A stretch of DNA of 8,729 bases from a virus (Duplodnaviria > Heunggongvirae > Uroviricota > Caudoviricetes), in the IMG/VR virus record IMGVR_UViG_2645727555_000021; one strand, given 5' to 3'. Shown here one piece after another: positions 252 through 8,729 of this stretch. Every line of letters begins with the position of its first letter. The stretch's first letter is position 1. The position numbers and the translations under genes are program-made. Below the pieces are notes generated by a model that was not told the origin of the DNA, did no database searches, and saw only the letters and a program-made list of their open reading frames with translations.

Positions 252-1949
252 TCACTTTTTTTCGTTAACCTTGCCTGTCAGCATGTCGATAGCACCTTCT
301 TTGGCACGAGTCAGACGCAGGCGGGTGAAGTAGTTTTCACCGTTGCGAGGATGTACTTCGTTGATGGCACTGCCCCAGAGAGTGGTACGGTTAACGAGAG
401 ACGGATTGGTTTCGTGCACGTAAGGGATTGCTGGGACTGCATCACCAGCAATCAGACCGGCTTTACCGATGCCTTCGCCACGCCCATAGAAGAAGATGTC
501 ATCCAGCCCGAAGTCATATCCCTGTGCCTGGAATTGCTCACAGACAGGTTGCGGCACTTCGTAAATACGAATCGTGCCAAACAGGGTGCCGATGTACTGT
601 ACATACGGCGACTGAACGTAACCTGGTGCGATCTGGAAGTGCTGTGGAGGCAGAGAGCGCAGGAAGTTCGCGGCGTCACCACCAGCAAAGCCGCCACGAA
701 TACCCGTTGTCAGGGTACGATTTGCCATTTCTTGAGACAGAGCGTTTACTACGTGACGCAGGAGGCCGACCCAGGACTCATAGTTTTGAGCTTCCGGCAG
801 AGCCACATCAAATTCACGACCATAAACGGTATGGAATACCAGGGTGCGCAGACGCATGATGTCGGTTTCATGGGAGATCCAGTTACGCATCGCGGAGAAC
901 TGAAGTGCCGCTAATTCAAGGCCGTGCTCACGGCTTAAATCGGATGCGGACATTACCGTGTGTTCGGAAGCAATTACGTACTGGGACGGACGAACTTCGT
1001 ACTTACGCATAGCCTGGTTGATCACCGGAATCAGGCTTGGATTGCGCTCGATGTTAATTTCGACCTGAACAGCAATTTCAGTACCTTCTGGCGGAGCCTG
1101 GGTAAATGTAATGTCAATGACACCAGTGTCATAGGCAACTTTGGCAGTCGCTGAGAAAGCATTACCTTTGCTGTCTTTAGCATTGAAATAAAGGTTGCCA
1201 TCGCCGTCGTCAACTTTGGACGGTTTGCGGTTGATCAGCAGTTTGTTATAACCAGCGCGAAGCGGGCAGGATTGTCCCTCAAAATTTTTGATGTCGAACT
1301 GGAAGGTTTTGGTGCTGCCATCCCCTTTAGTGGAAAGGGTATACAGGCGCTTCATTTGAGAATAAACACCAGCTGACTGCATATTCAGTTCGTCACCTTG
1401 TTTGAAGGTGCCGAATTTTGTGCCTGCTACGTTGACCAGTTCATAAATATTTGACTCGTCACGATCACAAGGAACAAAAGTACAGGCATCACTGGTAGCA
1501 GCGCCCAGAGAGGCAGGCAGAATTAGAGCAGCATATTGAGCAACTTTCATTACGCCGTCAGAGCTACGCATTGATTGCGCGACAGACTCAAACATTGCCT
1601 TACCCGTGCCTTCATGGGTATCACTGGCACATTCAGTCATCAGGCGTTCAAGAGCCATGTGTGCGTTCGCCAGGATGTCACTTGCCGGGTAATGACCATG
1701 TTGACGTTTATACTCATGCAGAGACATAGCCCACCCACCAGTGATCTGACGAGCGACCTCTGGATTTACGCCTTCAAACATAGGCACTTTCTGGATTGCT
1801 TTATCCAGGTTTTCCATCATTACTGCCTGGTCAGCAATCATGTTGCCTGCTGCATCGGTGGTCGGATCGACGGTCATAGCCATGACGCTTGCCGCCCGAT
1901 TCATAATCTCGCGCTCGCGATCACGAGCTGGCTGAATGTTTTTATTCAC
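252..1949 (-). CDS. Hypothetical 565-aa protein, function unknown (possibly a virion structural protein; speculative)
   Basis: Long uninterrupted ORF with a GTG start at 1949 (translation begins NKNIQPA), with AGGG about 9 nt upstream. No Walker A, no transmembrane segment, no recognisable catalytic motif by eye. The antisense ORFs 219..914 and 428..859 have low-complexity, Arg/His/Cys-rich translations and are treated as shadows. Confidence 0.75.
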   Translation of the reverse strand: MNKNIQPARDREREIMNRAASVMAMTVDPTTDAAGNMIADQAVMMENLDKAIQKVPMFEGVNPEVARQITGGWAMSLHEYKRQHGHYPASDILANAHMALERLMTECASDTHEGTGKAMFESVAQSMRSSDGVMKVAQYAALILPASLGAATSDACTFVPCDRDESNIYELVNVAGTKFGTFKQGDELNMQSAGVYSQMKRLYTLSTKGDGSTKTFQFDIKNFEGQSCPLRAGYNKLLINRKPSKVDDGDGNLYFNAKDSKGNAFSATAKVAYDTGVIDITFTQAPPEGTEIAVQVEINIERNPSLIPVINQAMRKYEVRPSQYVIASEHTVMSASDLSREHGLELAALQFSAMRNWISHETDIMRLRTLVFHTVYGREFDVALPEAQNYESWVGLLRHVVNALSQEMANRTLTTGIRGGFAGGDAANFLRSLPPQHFQIAPGYVQSPYVQYIGTLFGTIRIYEVPQPVCEQFQAQGYDFGLDDIFFYGRGEGIGKAGLIAGDAVPAIPYVHETNPSLVNRTTLWGSAINEVHPRNGENYFTRLRLTRAKEGAIDMLTGKVNEKK

Positions 1950-2107
1950 GGTTAAGCCCTAAATTCGGGCGCGGCGTGAAGGTTCTTTTGACGGGCTAAC
2001 AATACCTACTTTGTGATTTAGTCAATAGGTTTAGTAAAATAAAATCTATTAACACACATGTTGTTATGTGATTTAATTTTAGTTTTCTAACACAAATCAT
2101 TAGAGTT
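1950..2107. promoter_or_regulatory. AT-rich divergent intergenic region; presumed promoters for the 565-aa gene (leftward) and the 2108-2975 cassette (rightward)
   Basis: 158-bp AT-rich spacer between two divergently oriented coding regions. No -35/-10 pair could be assigned confidently. Confidence 0.3.
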
Positions 2108-2500
2108 ATGGCGTATCGAATCTTTGTTTCGTATAAAAATGGCGCTAAGAGCCACTCTCTGAACACAACAAGTCGCTTTCTTGTTGAGGCGCAGTTGGCA
2201 TCAATTCTTGCCGAAAGTGAGATACTCTCGCTCGCTGAACGGATCGTTATCCAGTTTTCTGGTAGAGATATACTCAATGTCCCCGCCCTCACCCCGGCAT
2301 CCGAAGTTATGGAATCAATTAAATGGCCTGTATGCGGATGTCCTGCCAGGGTTGAAGAGCCGGTAACTGCAACGCTCTACATGCCGAAAGCTGTAAGAGA
2401 TTGGCTTGCTATGGTTGGCAATGGGAAAGTCAGTGCTGGACTTCGCAAGTTAATTGAAATGGCAGATATTCCTGAGTTAAAAAATGCATGGCGACAATGA
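2108..2500 (+). CDS. Hypothetical 130-aa protein with a C-terminal ribbon-helix-helix-like segment (putative DNA-binding regulator or antitoxin-like)
   Basis: ATG at 2108 with only a weak SD (GAG). The C-terminus TATLYMPKAVRDWLAMVGNGKVSAGLRKLIEMA fits a strand / helix / G-x-S turn / helix RHH pattern. The stop at 2498-2500 is 16 nt before the next gene start, suggesting an operon. The start codon is uncertain. Confidence 0.5.
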   Translation: MAYRIFVSYKNGAKSHSLNTTSRFLVEAQLASILAESEILSLAERIVIQFSGRDILNVPALTPASEVMESIKWPVCGCPARVEEPVTATLYMPKAVRDWLAMVGNGKVSAGLRKLIEMADIPELKNAWRQ

Positions 2501-2516
2501 GTAAACAAGGGACAAA

Positions 2517-2975
2517 ATGAGTCACGTTAACCCATCAAAAACACAATATCGCTTAATGCTGGCGATCGCGTCAGCTATACCAACCAGCCTGAATCCCCCG
2601 GCAGGCTATCCCGCTGTTGTTGATGATTGTTTTCAGTATTACGGAGAAGACATCCTGAGCCAGTCCAAAGCGCTCAAGCAGTTATGTAAGGCAGGTATTC
2701 TTCACTGTATCGGAGATCCGGACGATTTTGTTGTTATGCTGGCGGATCGTGACTCTTTTCTACTGTCCTGGAAAGCCGGTGCGCGCGAAGCACGTTTGGG
2801 GAATGGTATTGGTTACATAGACTATAGTGATTGTCCGCTGGCATTTGCTGGTGGATATATGCATTGGCATGAGCGAAATAGAGGCCGTCAGCGTCAGTAT
2901 CGCTTGAGTGACTTTAACGTCTGTCACGGTTTCGAAGAAGCTGACAGCCAGGACATCTGGCTTCAGGAGCCTTGA
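2517..2975 (+). CDS. Hypothetical 152-aa protein, function unknown
   Basis: ATG at 2517 preceded by AAGGGA 5 nt upstream. Soluble, with no transmembrane segment and no recognised motif; Cys/His-containing (CHG, HWHE). Its 3' end overlaps the convergent lipoprotein gene by 13 bp. Confidence 0.65.
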   Translation: MSHVNPSKTQYRLMLAIASAIPTSLNPPAGYPAVVDDCFQYYGEDILSQSKALKQLCKAGILHCIGDPDDFVVMLADRDSFLLSWKAGAREARLGNGIGYIDYSDCPLAFAGGYMHWHERNRGRQRQYRLSDFNVCHGFEEADSQDIWLQEP

Positions 2976-3295
2976 TCCCCCTTCCCTTCCCAAATCTCCC
3001 TGTTTCTTTGGTTATTCAGTGCGTTTCGTTGGTTGCATTCGTCGATCGTGCTGAATAACTGTTCAGCGTATGTCGGATACTTGTTTAACAGCACTGGCGT
3101 GTCCTCTGGCACTAAACAAGGGGAGTAATCAATCAGATTTGCCTGCGGCTTGCTGGTGGCTTCTACGGTAATTTTCACTGGCACGCTGGTTGATGGCTTT
3201 TGCCCGTTCCCGCTGCATCCTGATAACGTCATCAGGCACACGCACATCGTTAATCCCAGCACGGCGTAACGCATTTTCAAGGCGAGTGATTTCAT
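2963..3295 (-). CDS. Outer-membrane lipoprotein, o-spanin (Rz1)-like
   Basis: N-terminus MKSLALKMRYAVLGLTMCVCLMTLSGC is a lipoprotein signal peptide with lipobox LSGC; the mature part is Pro/Ser/Thr-rich with extra Cys. GAGAGGAAAG lies immediately upstream of the ATG at 3295. The gene starts inside the 3' end of the upstream Rz-like gene in a different frame (overlap 3129-3295), matching the overlapped spanin architecture known for P2 lysB/lysC. Confidence 0.5.
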   Translation of the reverse strand: MKSLALKMRYAVLGLTMCVCLMTLSGCSGNGQKPSTSVPVKITVEATSKPQANLIDYSPCLVPEDTPVLLNKYPTYAEQLFSTIDECNQRNALNNQRNREIWEGKGDQGS

Positions 3296-3587
3296 TCTGG
3301 CTTTCCTCTCGTTGTTTGATTAGGTTGGCATTCAGTTCTGCTGTTTTGCGCTGGTACTCCTTTTCCAGTGCTTTAATTCTTTCGTTTTCGGTCAGCATGG
3401 CTGAGCGAGCGTTCTCACTTAACTGTAATGCGGTAGAAAGCGTGTTGTTCGTGCTTTCCAGTTGTGATTTTGAGTCTTCAAGCGATCGGACATACCTGAT
3501 GTGTTCGATAACTGCCGTCGTTGTTCGGTAAATTCCAGAAATGGCTAAAAGCGCAATTACAATCAAAATTATCTTTTTCAAAACCAT
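3129..3587 (-). CDS. Bitopic inner-membrane coiled-coil protein, i-spanin (Rz)-like
   Basis: The ORF is open to 3602, but the ATG at 3585-3587 (MVLKKIILIVIALLAISG...) is directly preceded by GGAGAGG, whereas the ATG at 3602 has no SD. One N-terminal transmembrane helix, then a long charged coiled-coil-like region (EKEYQRKTAELNANLIKQREESQNEITRLENALRRAG). Its C-terminal region overlaps the lipoprotein gene. Confidence 0.55.
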   Translation of the reverse strand: MVLKKIILIVIALLAISGIYRTTTAVIEHIRYVRSLEDSKSQLESTNNTLSTALQLSENARSAMLTENERIKALEKEYQRKTAELNANLIKQREESQNEITRLENALRRAGINDVRVPDDVIRMQRERAKAINQRASENYRRSHQQAAGKSD

Positions 3588-3658
3588 CCTCTCCAGGTTC
3601 ATTTTTTGGTGTTAAACATGTACCAATTTACATCCTTTTGTGTGCCTAAGTGGTGCTT

Positions 3659-4465
3659 CTATGATTCCTTTTTGGTGTTCTTTTGGAGCGCATCGATAAC
3701 GCCTTGTGGCATGATTAAACTGATTGCCGGACTCATTACTGCATCATCCAGTAGAGAACCAGTTAACGTGATGGCGACAGCGTTCTCTAAACCTTTGGTT
3801 GCCTGAGTGGTTGACGTTTTAATGCGACCTGTAAGGGCTACGACACCCTCACTTGCTGAGTTAATTTCGGAGAGTAAAACTTCGGCGGCTGTCACTGCTT
3901 CCCGTAAAGCATCAATTTCATCCTGAGTAATGACTGGAGCCTGAGCGCCCCCAGCACCACCCTGTCCACCATTGCTTTCACCACCACCAGCACTTCCGGC
4001 AGCTTCAATTTTTGCGTTAATGGCGTTCATGGCGGTTTTCAGAGCATCAAGTTTTAGCGCCGTCAATGCGTCCGTTAGAGATTGCGGAATGGAAACATTC
4101 CCCATTCCCTCAACAAGGGCGAAAGCAGGTATGGGGGTCAGCTCGTTACCTTTTGCGTAGCATTCCCAGCCAATCTTCATCTGTAACAACTCTGATGGCT
4201 TGGTGTATGGGGAAAGAGAATCAGCCAGTAATGAAGACGCTTTGCTGGCCTCATTGAGCTGTTCAGAAAAGCCAAGCAATTGAGTAGTCCAGGCCGAAAC
4301 AGAATCAGGATAGGTTTTATCGGCGTGAACTATTCCCTGTATGGCGCTGGCGAGCGATGAGGCTTTTACAGAAGCTGCCCGGCTTATGGTTATAGATTCT
4401 GGTGTAGAGATACCGGCATCTGACAGAATTTTGAAGGCTTTAACTTCACCTATTGAATCAAGCAT
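3659..4465 (-). CDS. Hypothetical 268-aa Ala/Ser/Gly-rich soluble protein, translationally coupled to the PAAR-like gene
   Basis: The ORF extends upstream to 4564, but its in-frame ATG at 4463-4465 overlaps the PAAR stop (TAATG on the coding strand); the first 33 codons of the longer ORF are shadow of the PAAR gene. Contains a low-complexity linker AAGSAGGGESNGGQGGAGGAQAP between helical Ala-rich halves. No transmembrane segment and no catalytic motif seen. Confidence 0.65.
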   Translation of the reverse strand: MLDSIGEVKAFKILSDAGISTPESITISRAASVKASSLASAIQGIVHADKTYPDSVSAWTTQLLGFSEQLNEASKASSLLADSLSPYTKPSELLQMKIGWECYAKGNELTPIPAFALVEGMGNVSIPQSLTDALTALKLDALKTAMNAINAKIEAAGSAGGGESNGGQGGAGGAQAPVITQDEIDALREAVTAAEVLLSEINSASEGVVALTGRIKTSTTQATKGLENAVAITLTGSLLDDAVMSPAISLIMPQGVIDALQKNTKKES

Positions 4466-4749
4466 TATGCAACCTGAAAAATATCCTCGCCGTTGGCGAT
4501 AACAGAACCACAAGAAAGCGGATCGCCTACACAGACAACTCCCTTTCCACCTATCGAAAACCATACTCGCGTCGATACAGCTGCCCCTGGATGTGCACTG
4601 TTACCGTCAGTGTGACTGGGAAACATGGCACCATCTACAACAACTGGCTTACCGTTAACGGTGAACCAGGGAACGGTTTCTGCTACCAGTCGCGGCGGAA
4701 ATCCTCCGTGACCAGAACAAAGGGTGTCGCTGGTGGCTATTGCGCTCAT
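4465..4749 (-). CDS. PAAR-repeat-like protein (94 aa)
   Basis: ATG at 4747-4749 with AGGAGG 6 nt upstream. Translation shows three repeats of the PAAR type: LCSGHGG, WFTVNGKPVVVDGA and VWFSIGGKGVVCVGD. Size and repeat pattern match PAAR spike-tip proteins of T6SS and T4 gp5.4; assignment is by eye, not alignment. Confidence 0.6.
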   Translation of the reverse strand: MSAIATSDTLCSGHGGFPPRLVAETVPWFTVNGKPVVVDGAMFPSHTDGNSAHPGAAVSTRVWFSIGGKGVVCVGDPLSCGSVIANGEDIFQVA

Positions 4750-4834
4750 TCTTCACCTCCTGGTTATCCTCCTATTGTCATCACTTTGTTATTTCGTCAT
4801 TCAAACGGAGAGTTAAATTTCGGAATATTTTTGT

Positions 4835-4990
4835 ATTCTCAATTCATTCTCAAATAAATCTCACTATCAGACCATCATTCAGTGAGTGATTAAGATATTC
4901 TCAAAATAAACTCAACAAGCGCTCTTTTTTATCTCGTTTGGTGTGGATTTTTGGGTGCTTCTCTTTTAAAATTACATTTTAATTCTCAAA
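4835..4990. repeat. parC-like centromere/operator iterons upstream of parM
   Basis: Four exact copies of ATTCTCAA at 4835-4842, 4846-4853, 4897-4904 and 4982-4989. Degenerate copies sit 11 bp after the second and third (AAATCTCA at 4857, AAACTCAA at 4908), giving two phased runs of three with 11-bp spacing, as in R1 parC. The array lies in the divergent region between the PAAR-operon start and parM. Confidence 0.45.
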
Positions 4991-5015
4991 TGTGTCTCAG
5001 AAGTGGAGCAAGAAG

Positions 5016-5972
5016 ATGCGCATTTTTATCGATGATGGTTCAACCAATATCAAAATGCTGTGGGAGCACGACGGGGAAACTCGCACTCACATCAGCCCTA
5101 ACAGCTTTAAGCGCGGATGGTCAGCAACATTTGGTGCGGGCAAGCCGTTTAACTATGTCATTGACGACGAAAAGTATTCATACGACTTGATATCGCCAGA
5201 TGTTCTGCCGACGAATAATGTGGAATGGCAATACAGCCCGCTTAACGTCCTGGCTGTTCACCATGCCCTGCTGACAAGTGGCATTGAGCCGCAGGAAGTA
5301 GAAATTGTGGTCACGCTGCCTCTGGCGGAGTTTTACGACGACGACGCGCAATACAATCTCGATAACATCGAGCGCAAGAAAGCCAGTCTTATGCGCCCCG
5401 TCACGCTGAATAAAGGCAATGTGTTCACGATTAAGAAAGTTACGGTACGACCGGAGTCTATTCCGGCAGGAATTGGCCTGTGCGACAATCTGAACCCTGC
5501 CCATTCTGTTCTTATCGTCGATTTGGGTGGAACTACCCTTGATGTTTCAATGGTCGCCGGGCAAATGACGGCAGTTTCCCGTGTTTTTGGCGATTCGAAT
5601 CTTGGTGTATCACTGGTCACCAGGGAAGTAAGGCAAGCACTTGCAAGGGCCAATACCGAAACGTCAAATTACAATGTTGATCAGCTCATTATTAACCGCC
5701 ACGATGAAGATTATCTGAACGACAATATCAATGACCCATCAGCGATTGGTGATGTGAAAAAGGCCATTGCCGCAAGCATTGACCGTCTGCGTACCCGCGT
5801 TCTTGATGTGATTGGCGACTTTAAAGGATATACGCATGTCATGGTGATCGGTGGTGGCGCACCGCTGGTGGCAGATGCAATTCGCGAGCAAGTTAATATT
5901 CGTGATGACCGTTTCTTCGTGGCGGATGACCCGCAACTTGCTCTTGTTCATGGCCTGAAAGCAATCGGTTAA
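5016..5972 (+). CDS. parM: Type II partition actin-like ATPase ParM (StbA)
   Basis: The N-terminus MRIFIDDGSTNIKMLWEHDGETRTHISPNSFKRGW closely follows the R1 ParM N-terminus (MLVFIDDGSTNIK...HISPNSFKREW) as I recall it, and the motif NVLAVHHALLTSG is also shared. GGAG lies 7 nt before the ATG at 5016; the tracked ORF start at 4992 is a GTG extension without an SD. 318 aa. Confidence 0.9.
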   Translation: MRIFIDDGSTNIKMLWEHDGETRTHISPNSFKRGWSATFGAGKPFNYVIDDEKYSYDLISPDVLPTNNVEWQYSPLNVLAVHHALLTSGIEPQEVEIVVTLPLAEFYDDDAQYNLDNIERKKASLMRPVTLNKGNVFTIKKVTVRPESIPAGIGLCDNLNPAHSVLIVDLGGTTLDVSMVAGQMTAVSRVFGDSNLGVSLVTREVRQALARANTETSNYNVDQLIINRHDEDYLNDNINDPSAIGDVKKAIAASIDRLRTRVLDVIGDFKGYTHVMVIGGGAPLVADAIREQVNIRDDRFFVADDPQLALVHGLKAIG

Positions 5973-5979
5973 CGAGGTA

Positions 5980-6324
5980 ATGTCCATGTCTCAGGAACGT
6001 AAGAAAGTGATGATTTATCTTCGCCCAGAGGCTTATGCCAATGAAAAGGCGGCGAGCGAGAAGATAAAAAAACATAGCGATATGGCAAGAACCGCATTGT
6101 TGGCAGGGCTTGCGCTGGGAGAAGTCGATAGCAGGCTTCCAGGATTACTGGCTTCCCTGCTGACCGAAGACAATAACCCGGAGCTGATCCGAAAAATGCT
6201 GGCATCCTTCCTGGAACTACCAGCTGCGGTTGAGGAGCGCCCTGCCTCCATTGAGCCAGTGAAGGAGCAAGTTGTTGCCAAAAGCGCGTCGGCGCGCAAT
6301 CTGGCTGACTCTCTACCTGATTGA
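5980..6324 (+). CDS. parR: Type II partition adaptor ParR (StbB)-like DNA-binding protein
   Basis: It lies 8 nt after the parM stop, is of ParR size, and the segment ARTALLAGLALGE resembles RAALTAGLALY of R1 ParR from memory. The start may be the ATG at 5986 rather than 5980, because GAGG at 5974-5977 is better spaced for it. Confidence 0.75.
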   Translation: MSMSQERKKVMIYLRPEAYANEKAASEKIKKHSDMARTALLAGLALGEVDSRLPGLLASLLTEDNNPELIRKMLASFLELPAAVEERPASIEPVKEQVVAKSASARNLADSLPD

Positions 6325-6578: not shown

Positions 6579-6611
6579 GTTTTGATACCAAAATCACACC
6601 GAGGAACGGAT

Positions 6612-7253
6612 ATGATTATATTGGTAGTCAGCCAAAAAGGTGGCTGTGGAAAATCAACCACAAGCGTAAACATCTGTGCGGAGCTTGCCCGCGCAAATAA
6701 GGATGTAGTGTTACTAGATGCAGACAAGCAAGGAACAGCTGCCCGCTGGGCAGCTGACCGTAACACGGCAGAGGTTTCTCCTGTTATTCATTGTGTCCAG
6801 AAGTTTGGTAATATTCGAGAAACACTTCTCGATCTGGATAAGCGTTATGAATTTGTTGTTGTTGATACAGCCGGGCGCGATAGCAAAGAGATGCGTACAG
6901 GCATAACCGCTGCAGATATTGTGTTGGTCCCATTCAGACCATCTCAACCAGATTTAGACACGCTGGCACACTTTGTTGAAGTGTTTGAAGAGGCTTTGGA
7001 CCTGATGCCTAATCCTAGCATTAAGGCGTTCGCAGTCTTAACAATGGCCCCATCCAATCCGGTTGTGAATGAAACCAATGAGGCCAAAGAGTACCTGGCT
7101 GAATATCCGCAACTGAAGTTGCTGAAAACCATCATTCGTGATCGTAAGGTTTACCGTGATTGCATGGCTGAAGGGAAGGGCGTTGTTGAGATGGACAACG
7201 GGAAAGCTAAAGGTGAAATCCAGATGTTGGTTAAGGAGTTATTAAGTGATTAA
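6612..7253 (+). CDS. parA: Type Ib partition ATPase, small ParA/ParF-like (213 aa)
   Basis: The N-terminus MIILVVSQKGGCGKSTT is the deviant Walker A (KGGxGKT/S) of ParA/MinD ATPases. The C-terminus (RKVYRDCMAEGKGVVEMDNGKAKGEIQMLVKELL) resembles ParF of TP228 from memory. GAGGAA lies 5 nt before the ATG at 6612; the tracked TTG start at 6582 is an unsupported extension. Confidence 0.85.
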   Translation: MIILVVSQKGGCGKSTTSVNICAELARANKDVVLLDADKQGTAARWAADRNTAEVSPVIHCVQKFGNIRETLLDLDKRYEFVVVDTAGRDSKEMRTGITAADIVLVPFRPSQPDLDTLAHFVEVFEEALDLMPNPSIKAFAVLTMAPSNPVVNETNEAKEYLAEYPQLKLLKTIIRDRKVYRDCMAEGKGVVEMDNGKAKGEIQMLVKELLSD

Positions 7254-7533
7254 GCCTCGTAAATCGGTAAAAGCCCCCGAAGTAAAAGACCCCGATCTTG
7301 AACGCCGAATTGAGGATTTTGCAAGTAAGGCTGATTTGGTGCCGGGTGAGCAACCAGAAGACAACAAAGTGCTCGATAAGGACGCTCCACGTGATTTTAA
7401 ATCTATTCGTGTTGGTTTCAATGAATACGAGTACCAGGTACTTGATGCGTTAAGTAAAAAGCATAATCGCAGCAAATTGAATATGATCCGCCATGCTATC
7501 CTCATGTTAGCGGAGTCTGAAGAAGCAAAATAA
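7246..7533 (+). CDS. ParG-like ribbon-helix-helix centromere-binding partner (95 aa)
   Basis: GTG start at 7246 with AAGGAG at 7233-7238, overlapping the parA stop by 8 nt. The C-terminus SIRVGFNEYEYQVLDALSKKHNRSKLNMIRHAILMLAE fits an RHH fold, and the N-terminus is charged and likely disordered, as in ParG. The only in-frame ATG is at codon 80. Confidence 0.6.
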   Translation: MIKPRKSVKAPEVKDPDLERRIEDFASKADLVPGEQPEDNKVLDKDAPRDFKSIRVGFNEYEYQVLDALSKKHNRSKLNMIRHAILMLAESEEAK

Positions 7534-7640: not shown

Positions 7641-7801
7641 ATTTTTCATTAATTTACTTATGCGCAAAAGTGGGCTTCATGAAAAAGCTCATTATTGAAA
7701 TAACGATAGAAAGCAATTTCTAATCAACTAGTGGTTGTCAGCCTATTCGGCTTATAAGATCATACGCTGTTATACGTTGTTTACGCTTTGAGGAATCCAC
7801 A

Positions 7802-8729
7802 ATGAGTGAGGCAGAAGCCCGCCCGACTAACTTTATTCGTCAGATCATCGATGAAGATCTGGCCAGTGGTAAGCACACCACAGTACATACCCGTTTCCCG
7901 CCGGAACCGAATGGCTATCTGCATATTGGTCATGCGAAATCTATCTGCCTGAACTTCGGGATCGCCCAGGACTATAAAGGCCAGTGCAACCTGCGTTTCG
8001 ACGACACTAACCCGGTAAAAGAAGATATCGAGTACGTCGAGTCGATTAAAAACGACGTTGAATGGTTAGGTTTTCACTGGTCTGGCAACATCCGTTACTC
8101 CTCCGATTATTTTGACAAACTCCATGCCTATGCTGTTGAACTGATCAACAAAGGACTGGCGTATGTTGACGAACTGACGCCGGAACAGATCCGCGAATAC
8201 CGCGGCACCCTGACGCAGCCGGGTAAAAACAGCCCGTACCGCGACCGCAGCGTTGAAGAGAACCTGGCGCTGTTCGAAAAAATGCGTGCCGGTGGTTTTG
8301 AAGAAGGTAAAGCCTGCCTGCGTGCGAAAATCGACATGGCTTCGCCGTTTATCGTGATGCGCGACCCGGTGCTGTACCGTATTAAGTTTGCTGAACACCA
8401 CCAGACTGGCAACAAGTGGTGCATCTACCCGATGTACGACTTCACCCACTGCATCAGCGATGCGCTGGAAGGTATTACGCACTCTCTGTGTACGCTTGAG
8501 TTCCAGGACAACCGTCGTCTGTATGACTGGGTACTGGACAACATCACCATTCCTGTTCATCCGCGCCAGTACGAATTCTCGCGCCTGAATCTGGAATACA
8601 CCGTGATGTCCAAGCGTAAGCTGAACCAGCTGGTAACCGACAAGCACGTTGAAGGCTGGGATGACCCGCGTATGCCGACCATTTCCGGTCTGCGTCGTCG
8701 TGGTTACACTGCTGCTTCTATTCGTGAGT
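7802..8729 (+). CDS. glnS: Glutaminyl-tRNA synthetase, N-terminal 309 codons (3' partial, continues beyond the window)
   Basis: The translation [53 protein letters not shown]... carries the class I HIGH motif (HIGH) and VMSKR (KMSK motif) and matches E. coli GlnRS from memory, with a few substitutions. GAGG lies about 8 nt before the ATG. The ORF track missed it because it runs off the window; the antisense ORFs 8066..8647 and 8128..8424 are shadows. Confidence 0.96.

Follow-up and report, generated by a model that had tools for sequence, protein, structure and literature searches.

What do two small adjacent genes contribute to a phage-plasmid when they lie between its major capsid gene and its spanin genes and match no characterized family? 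The question is raised by orf52 and orf53, which occupy positions 2108–2975 of an 8,729-nucleotide stretch of viral DNA (IMG/VR record IMGVR_UViG_2645727555_000021, hereafter the window) that belongs to an element of the type of Escherichia phage D6. An original prediction, made from the window sequence without database searches, had likened the pair to an autoregulated toxin–antitoxin (TA) module or to an anti-defense cassette of the kind common in plasmid leading regions. The analysis leads, with slightly better than even confidence, to a different explanation, namely that the two genes form an early operon of a D6-type phage-plasmid that is controlled directly by C1, the master repressor of the prophage. 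The best-supported statement concerns the regulation and the context of the pair, not its biochemical function, and the pair, as an accessory operon of a P1-family phage-plasmid with early expression under a repressor, would not yet constitute a new mechanism.

The Element and the Two Genes

The window region shares 98.8% DNA identity with Escherichia phage D6, a P1-family myophage that exists as a plasmid in the lysogen. In PLSDB the region matched 121 plasmids of ∼75–96 kb, of which 119 are nonmobilizable, with E. coli, Salmonella, and Shigella as the hosts; searches with the capsid gene and with the cassette region separately gave 121 plasmid records in either case. Because the element is a nonmobilizable P1-family phage-plasmid of the D6 type and not a conjugative plasmid, it has no leading region, and the suggested origin of the cassette as plasmid leading-region genes was rejected. 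Elements like D6 are widely distributed among E. coli, Shigella, and Salmonella strains, some of them from clinically relevant lineages, and for the majority of their early genes no function has been assigned.

Both genes lie on the plus strand and start with ATG. The first, orf52 (2108–2500), encodes a basic protein of 130 amino acids (pI 8.6) and is followed after a 16-nt gap by orf53 (2517–2975), which encodes an acidic protein of 152 amino acids (pI 5.4); open reading frames (ORFs) and gap are exactly as originally predicted. The Shine–Dalgarno sequence of the second gene (AAGGGA, plus strand, 2507–2512, read from the sequence) is located 4 nt upstream of the ATG, so that its earlier description as strong is fair. 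The two proteins gave full-length matches to the PHROG families 7830 and 8101 (E = 7e-79 and 8e-98, respectively), both without functional annotation. In the D6 record the genes are named orf52 and orf53 and are both labeled hypothetical, the same genes are annotated in RefSeq plasmids, and a literature search found no mention of the two protein accessions; both proteins are thus already catalogued, as hypothetical. The pair is intact in D6-like elements down to an amino acid identity of 44% (Orf52) and 83% (Orf53), and the ratio of nonsynonymous to synonymous substitution rates (dN/dS) against diverged relatives is 0.05–0.15 for orf52 and 0.02 for orf53. Both genes are under purifying selection. 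Annotation in D6 and in RefSeq plasmids, membership in PHROG families, and intact retention with low dN/dS together show that the ORFs do not represent chance reading frames.

The order orf52 then orf53, with the capsid gene on one side and the spanin genes on the other, was found in every D6-like locus inspected, with gaps of 8–42 nt between the two genes in the relatives, and the pair is thus a real and tightly linked two-gene unit. No terminator-like site was identified within positions 1800–3400. Co-transcription of the two genes is proposed based on the short gap, the lack of a terminator-like site and the constant gene order in the D6-like elements. The two genes evolve at very different rates. 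Among elements with capsid proteins that are 81–91% identical (where the capsid gene was available), Orf52 displays identities of 81, 65, 50, and 44% compared with 83–99% for Orf53, and the dN of Orf52 is 5–17 times that of Orf53. In the comparison of the window with one of these relatives (locus L024; the loci of relatives are referred to by L numbers) the dS value is 0.37 for orf53, compared with 2.7 for orf52 and 1.9 for the capsid gene. The much lower value for orf53 points to a recombination junction between orf52 and orf53.

A Candidate C1 Operator Upstream of orf52

The divergent control region between the capsid gene and orf52 (1950–2107) was aligned among seven diverged D6-like elements whose Orf52 proteins are 44–81% identical. 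Two conserved blocks emerged, a capsid-proximal block (∼1950–2025) and a block that adjoins orf52. The latter contains the predicted operator AATTTTAGTTTTCTAACACAA (plus strand, 2075–2095) with the core TTTTCTAACA at positions 2083–2092, which is located 16 nt upstream of the orf52 ATG and is invariant in all seven elements. With a score of 30.2 bits against a weight matrix of the D6 sites, the operator is among the best sites, and it is the only one in the window. An imperfect inverted-repeat arm at 2031–2054 pairs with positions 2067–2090 (24-nt arms, 75% complementary) and may represent the other half of a bivalent operator in degenerate form; in each of two relatives, L020 and L024, this place is taken by an operator-like copy in inverted orientation, and the copy in the window is degenerate.

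The core is a recurrent motif of the element. The 91,159-bp D6 genome contains 10 copies of the 10-mer TTTTCTAACA, compared with 0.28 expected under a first-order Markov model, and 12 copies of the 8-mer TTCTAACA, compared with 2.9 expected. The extended consensus of the D6 sites, AAATTAGTTTTCTAACAcA, is asymmetric, and a scan of D6 with the weight matrix returned 18 sites with at least 12 bits, 17 of which are intergenic, compared with 0–5 sites in shuffled genomes. In D6 coordinates, sites were found 20 nt upstream of c1 (206), upstream of lpa (4639), of repL (22474), and of the two icd-antirepressor operons (21269 and 75987), and on both sides of ref (75987 and 76639). Further sites are located downstream of cre and, as inverted pairs (64123/64138 and 80716/80731), upstream of hrdC and pdcB. 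Five copies are present in the pmgS–pmgM region, two of them within a 1.2-kb stretch that carries no annotated gene (7850–9085), and no copy was found in the major late operons that the window contains.

This distribution resembles that of the C1 operators of phage P1. In P1, C1 recognizes dispersed operators (22 in total) that are asymmetric and 17 bp in length (consensus ATTGCTCTAATAAATTT), and repL and lpa are under its control (PMC8546580); operators for C1 are also annotated at ref and mat in the P1 record. The early operons under P1 C1 control (e.g., Oref-ref, Op53 kilA-repL, and Op86 lpa) likewise carry a single asymmetric operator of ∼17 bp immediately upstream of a short early unit, and as in P1 the D6 copies are dispersed over a phage-plasmid of ∼90 kb, at c1, lpa, repL, the immI-type operons, and ref. 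The operators themselves differ (AAATTAGTTTTCTAACA for the D6 type compared with ATTGCTCTAATAAATTT for P1), and a search of the window for the P1 consensus returned no match. D6 and P1 are heteroimmune, and a lack of P1-type sites is expected if the D6 repressor has its own specificity. P1 also has no homolog of orf52 or orf53; at the map position equivalent to the cassette, P1 carries its par–rep region. In a P1-type relative (L008), operators with a single mismatch to the P1 consensus are located on both sides of a cluster that contains an orf53 homolog and a dUTPase gene. Based on the likeness between the two sets of sites, the motif at 2075–2095 is taken as a candidate operator of the D6 C1 repressor and orf52–orf53 are assigned to the predicted C1 regulon, under which the pair would be silent in the lysogen and switched on at an early stage of lytic growth. 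The assignment is further supported by the operators around the L008 cluster and by the icd-antirepressor module that takes the place of orf53 in some plasmids, which carries an inverted pair of the D6 motif.

The proposed sequence of events is as follows. In the lysogenic (plasmid) state, C1 would occupy the asymmetric operator at 2075–2095, which would overlap the orf52 promoter or sit just downstream of it, and the operon would be off. Upon infection or inactivation of C1, orf52 and orf53 would be transcribed as one unit, at the same time as the other early functions under C1 control (lpa, repL, icd-antirepressor, and ref). Orf52 would most likely act as a dimeric DNA-binding protein, composed of a C-terminal ribbon–helix–helix (RHH)-like fold and a fast-evolving N-terminal alpha/beta domain, and would have a secondary regulatory role, either on the operon that encodes it or on a different promoter of the phage. 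Orf53 would be the conserved effector, a soluble and acidic protein with a conserved histidine and a conserved Cys–His pair in its C-terminal half, expected to act on a host target or a DNA-associated target during early lytic development. The assignment to the C1 regulon shifts the sensible experiments toward phenotypes after induction or infection and away from killing upon plasmid loss, and the candidate operator consensus and the genome-wide list of sites can be tested directly.

Several observations weigh against this explanation. We infer the link between the motif and D6 C1 by analogy with P1, and the genes of the pmgS–pmgM region, where five of the copies are located, are called morphogenetic, so that the motif could conceivably serve a different regulator. 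The only sigma-70-like promoter match within 1800–3400 (plus strand, 2011–2040; TTGTGA, an 18-nt spacer, and TAAAAT) is weak, as one match was found where shuffled sequences gave 2.4, and its -10 hexamer is not conserved among the seven aligned elements; an alternative -10 hexamer for orf52, TAACAC at 2087–2092, falls within the predicted operator. Furthermore, orf52 is not preceded by a clear Shine–Dalgarno sequence, and the assignment of an RHH segment to its product is without support from hidden Markov models (HMMs) or profiles.

The Two Proteins

Orf52 is confined to a narrow group of elements: the 20 clusters found among 5.8 billion proteins are all from D6-like elements of Enterobacteriaceae. 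The AlphaFold model of the protein (mean predicted local distance difference test [pLDDT] score of 74) consists of an N-terminal beta–alpha–beta–beta domain (residues 3–59), a disordered and variable linker, and three helices (residues 94–103, 108–118, and 122–129). The C-terminal RHH-like segment of the original prediction, delimited here as residues 86–120 (plus strand, 2363–2467), finds partial support in the sequence pattern and in the predicted helices. Residues 87–119 (TATLYMP-KAVRDWLAMV-GNGK-VSAGLRKLIEMA) fit the strand–helix–turn–helix pattern by eye, with the putative strand T87-A-T-L-Y-M-P93, a helix, the turn G104-N-G-K, and a second helix; the helices at 94–103 and 108–118 lie in a block with a pLDDT of ∼84, and the AlphaFold monomer draws no strand there. 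The prediction fails at the level of profiles: no RHH family was matched in Pfam by Orf52 or in the PHROGs by isolated C-terminal fragments of six variants, an hhalign comparison of Orf52 with the two bona fide RHH proteins encoded in the window (the ParG-like protein and StbB) gave probabilities <1%, and no RHH structure was among the fold matches. An RHH identity of the segment is plausible, and we regard it as an even call; the suggestion that the first gene product binds DNA is plausible as well. Fold searches with the Orf52 model returned nothing significant, and the best structural neighbors of the N-terminal domain, themselves nonsignificant, were the small phage inhibitors AcrIF9 and Dmd.

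Orf53 is very rare. A profile search of 1.84 billion proteins identified 23 representatives (one of them a repeat artifact), and the family comprises P1-like phage-plasmids and one Vibrio phage. Within PLSDB, Orf53 is encoded on 142 plasmids, 141 of which are nonmobilizable; those among the records listed are mostly ∼75–96 kb in size, with outliers of, for example, 35 and 142 kb. In addition to the hosts of the D6-like elements these plasmids were found in Vibrio (13), Citrobacter (7), Pantoea (6), Enterobacter, Leclercia, Acinetobacter, Photobacterium, and Aeromonas. Among phage records only D6 and Vibrio phage douglas 12A4 encode the protein, and the D6 record describes orf53 as “similar to PAG_00037 of Vibrio phage douglas 12A4.” An alignment of 21 sequences revealed the invariant residues Y41, F81, G88, G95, Y100, F110, G113, H116, and C136-H137-G138. 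Orf53 is thus very rare, strongly constrained, and confined to P1-like elements, which makes it reasonable to suspect that the protein interacts specifically with some conserved component of the host. A structural model built from 10 sequences reached a mean pLDDT of 46 and was unusable for a fold search. The P1 proteins C8 and Cra were considered as possible relatives of Orf53 and ruled out, as no similarity was detected.

No match to Pfam, NCBIfam, PADLOC, or PDB sequences was obtained for either protein or for any member of the alignments (the PDB was searched with single proteins and with profiles), which includes the absence of any toxin family match for Orf53 and its 20 homologs; in the PHROGs all matches were to families without a known function. 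The sole PADLOC match, a weak one (REase_II, E = 0.0016), was to one distant homolog, and a known defense system was rejected because PADLOC otherwise returned no components of described systems. Described anti-defense inhibitors were not matched in the PDB sequence search, and the Orf52 fold search gave only the nonsignificant resemblance to AcrIF9 and Dmd. A search of Rfam returned nothing. The statement that neither protein belongs to a recognizable family is borne out, as the PHROG families carry no annotation and the check proposed with it, in the form of HMM searches of both proteins and a fold search of Orf52, returned no confident match to a characterized family.

Separability and Changing Partners

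Within intact D6-like elements orf52 and orf53 always occur together. Outside this group, at least 14 loci (L003–L006 and L008–L017) and Vibrio phage douglas 12A4 contain Orf53 homologs without Orf52. The homologs at these loci show 33–59% identity and are encoded in viral contigs of phage-plasmid size (∼46–106 kb), several of them between cre-like and ref-like genes that were recognized by eye from the translations. In four Vibrio-type loci (L011, L014, L015, and L016) a gene for a PadR-family regulator adjoins the Orf53 homolog (locus position ∼5000), upstream or downstream, so that Orf53 is paired with a DNA-binding protein a second time and independently of the D6-like elements. These PadR-like proteins have a long C-terminal coiled-coil-like extension and are only 26–37% identical among L011/L014, L015, and L016 (92% between L011 and L014). 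The direct neighbors in L008 are a helix–hairpin–helix protein and the dUTPase, and in douglas 12A4 the homolog is located in a run of small genes beside RdgC and an exonuclease. Overall, Orf53 homologs keep early-gene company: dUTPase, exonuclease, HNH nuclease, and the cre–ref interval.

Approximately 12 D6-like plasmids that lack orf53 retain an orf52 that is 99% identical up to its last codons. In these plasmids, exemplified by two loci (L034, NZ_CP020051.1, and L035, NZ_OY757108.1; locus positions 3900–5700), orf53 is replaced by a convergent module of an icd-like gene and an ORF6N antirepressor gene, with a breakpoint within the last codons of orf52 (window position ∼2496), and this module carries its own inverted pair of the D6 motif. 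The genes orf52 and orf53 are therefore separable. In other relatives additional genes without known function follow orf53, encoding proteins of 82 amino acids (L028) and of 112 and 212 amino acids (L031). The module replacement and the additional genes indicate a recombination hot spot at this position.

Alternative Explanations

The first alternative is an early anti-defense cassette, in which the inhibitor is either the N-terminal domain of Orf52, fused to its own RHH autorepressor in the manner of Acr–Aca fusions, or Orf53. The predicted early and repressor-controlled expression, the location at a recombination hot spot where relatives have exchanged a module or gained genes, the rapid divergence of Orf52, and the nonsignificant likeness of its N-terminal domain to AcrIF9 and Dmd are all consistent with such a role. 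The general layout is also that of Acr/Aca operons and Acr–Aca fusions, which are small early phage operons that combine a DNA-binding autoregulator-like element with uncharacterized small proteins in recombination-prone loci. The cassette differs from these in that no significant similarity was found and in that the DNA-binding protein is the variable member and its partner the conserved one, the reverse of the usual arrangement. Published screens of P1/D6 phage-plasmids name other anti-defense genes, and none of those considered could be assigned to the cassette locus. Taken together, we consider an anti-defense function unlikely, if not strongly so. A related and bolder extension, speculative and distinctly unlikely, is that Orf53 founds a new early-effector family of P1-like phage-plasmids (for host takeover or anti-defense, or toxin-like) that was captured repeatedly beside different DNA-binding partners, with Orf52 as an inhibitor or adaptor domain fused to its own repressor domain. 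The exchanged partners would be the RHH-like Orf52 in D6-type elements, the PadR-like proteins in Vibrio-type elements, and the helix–hairpin–helix protein in another lineage.

The resemblance to a TA module that was noted in the original prediction finds weak support. As a type II module with a role in addiction or abortive infection, Orf52 would be the autoregulating RHH antitoxin and Orf53 the toxin. The layout fits, with a small DNA-binding-like gene first, a short gap, and protein sizes within range, as in modules with RHH antitoxins (ParD–ParE, CopG/RelB-type, and HicB-like, the last with an alpha/beta domain at the N-terminus and an RHH at the C-terminus), which likewise consist of two small adjacent genes of which the first evolves faster and encodes the RHH segment (putative in Orf52). 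The higher dN of Orf52 is often seen for antitoxins, the PadR-like partner in Vibrio-type elements resembles the partner swapping of TA families, and within the D6-like elements orf53 was lost with orf52 kept, never the reverse. A C-terminal RHH is atypical for RHH antitoxins, and Orf53 is acidic and larger than most TA toxins. No similarity to toxin, antitoxin, or defense families was found, in the sequence of either protein or in the fold search with Orf52. The pairing is not obligate, as many P1-like elements and douglas 12A4 encode Orf53 homologs without Orf52 or a recognizable partner and ∼12 D6-like plasmids carry orf52 without orf53, and the differing recombination histories of the two genes within the same element pair (dS of 0.37 for orf53 and 2.7 for orf52) likewise weigh against a TA pair. 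With a predicted C1 operator at its promoter, the operon is expected to be off in the plasmid state, when an addiction module has to be active, and D6-type elements already contain phd–doc and higBA (PMC6799933). A TA function of the cassette is accordingly considered improbable.

A purely regulatory pair, in which Orf52 with its RHH-like segment and Orf53 with a winged-helix-like N-terminal half both bind DNA and tune the lytic program, for example at the divergent capsid late promoter or at a switch away from plasmid maintenance, was judged to be quite improbable. The cassette is located back to back with the strongly conserved capsid promoter/leader block, the N-terminal half of Orf53 displays a helix, helix, beta-hairpin pattern in the sequence and in the low-confidence model, and Orf53 homologs are often found beside DNA-binding proteins (PadR-like, helix–hairpin–helix, and small winged-helix-like). 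Against this, the Orf53 model is unreliable (pLDDT 46), an hhalign comparison of the Orf53 family with the alignment of the PadR neighbors was negative, the protein is acidic along its whole length (pI 5.4), an unusual property among DNA-binding proteins, and orf53 is dispensable in ∼12 natural D6-like plasmids. Finally, the possibility that the motif is not a C1 operator and that the lysogen expresses both genes for lysogenic conversion or for maintenance, which draws on the indirect identification of the operator and on the several copies near genes annotated as morphogenetic, is barely credible given that the motif marks the P1 C1 loci (c1, lpa, repL, the immI-like icd-antirepressor operons, and ref) and is missing from the major late operons in the window.

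Neighboring Genes and Control Elements

The major capsid gene (minus strand, 252–1949) is divergent from orf52. The capsid-proximal block of the control region (1950–2025) shows ∼90–100% conservation across D6-like elements in which the synonymous sites of the capsid gene have reached saturation; it is probably the leader of the capsid mRNA together with the late promoter, and contains a possible GCCC…GGGC hairpin around the Shine–Dalgarno sequence. A box within this block, TTGACTAAATCACAAAGT (minus strand, 2008–2025), is nearly invariant among the seven aligned elements and is probably the late promoter of the capsid gene, a control element of the neighbor that lies outside the cassette. Its core, ACAAAGT, is also present in the correct orientation upstream of pmgS, upfC/PAAR, and orf80 in D6, and an attempt to derive a D6 late-promoter consensus from the box gave a result that is only suggestive.

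On the other side, the cassette is bounded by two convergent genes on the minus strand with Rz-like PHROG matches, the o-spanin lipoprotein gene (110-amino-acid ORF, 2963–3295) with a lipoprotein signal (…CLMTLSGC) and a second spanin gene (157-amino-acid ORF, 3129–3602, E = 1e-15) whose product has an N-terminal transmembrane segment and a coiled coil. The 3′ ends of the o-spanin gene and orf53 overlap by 13 nt, and the early and late transcription units therefore converge and overlap. The two spanin genes overlap each other and are labeled hypothetical in the D6 record (orf54 and orf55), where orf54 is annotated too short (73 amino acids).

Further downstream, a gene for a PAAR-domain protein (94 amino acids, upfC-like) and an upfB-like gene occupy positions 3659–4749 on the minus strand. 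The PAAR gene is located directly upstream of the upfB-like gene and is translationally coupled to it, and the divergent promoter region upstream is common with parM; the protein is presumably a tail-tip or spike component of the myophage. Two different partition systems adjoin each other in the window, an actin-type ParM/StbB system (4992–6324) and a small-ParA/ParG-like system (6582–7533), in which the small parA gene is overlapped by a gene for a 95-amino-acid Arc/ParG-like RHH protein. The glnS gene (glutaminyl-tRNA synthetase, orf62 in D6; plus strand, ∼7800–8729) runs past the end of the window, and a 193-amino-acid ORF on the minus strand at 8066–8647 is a shadow ORF of glnS.

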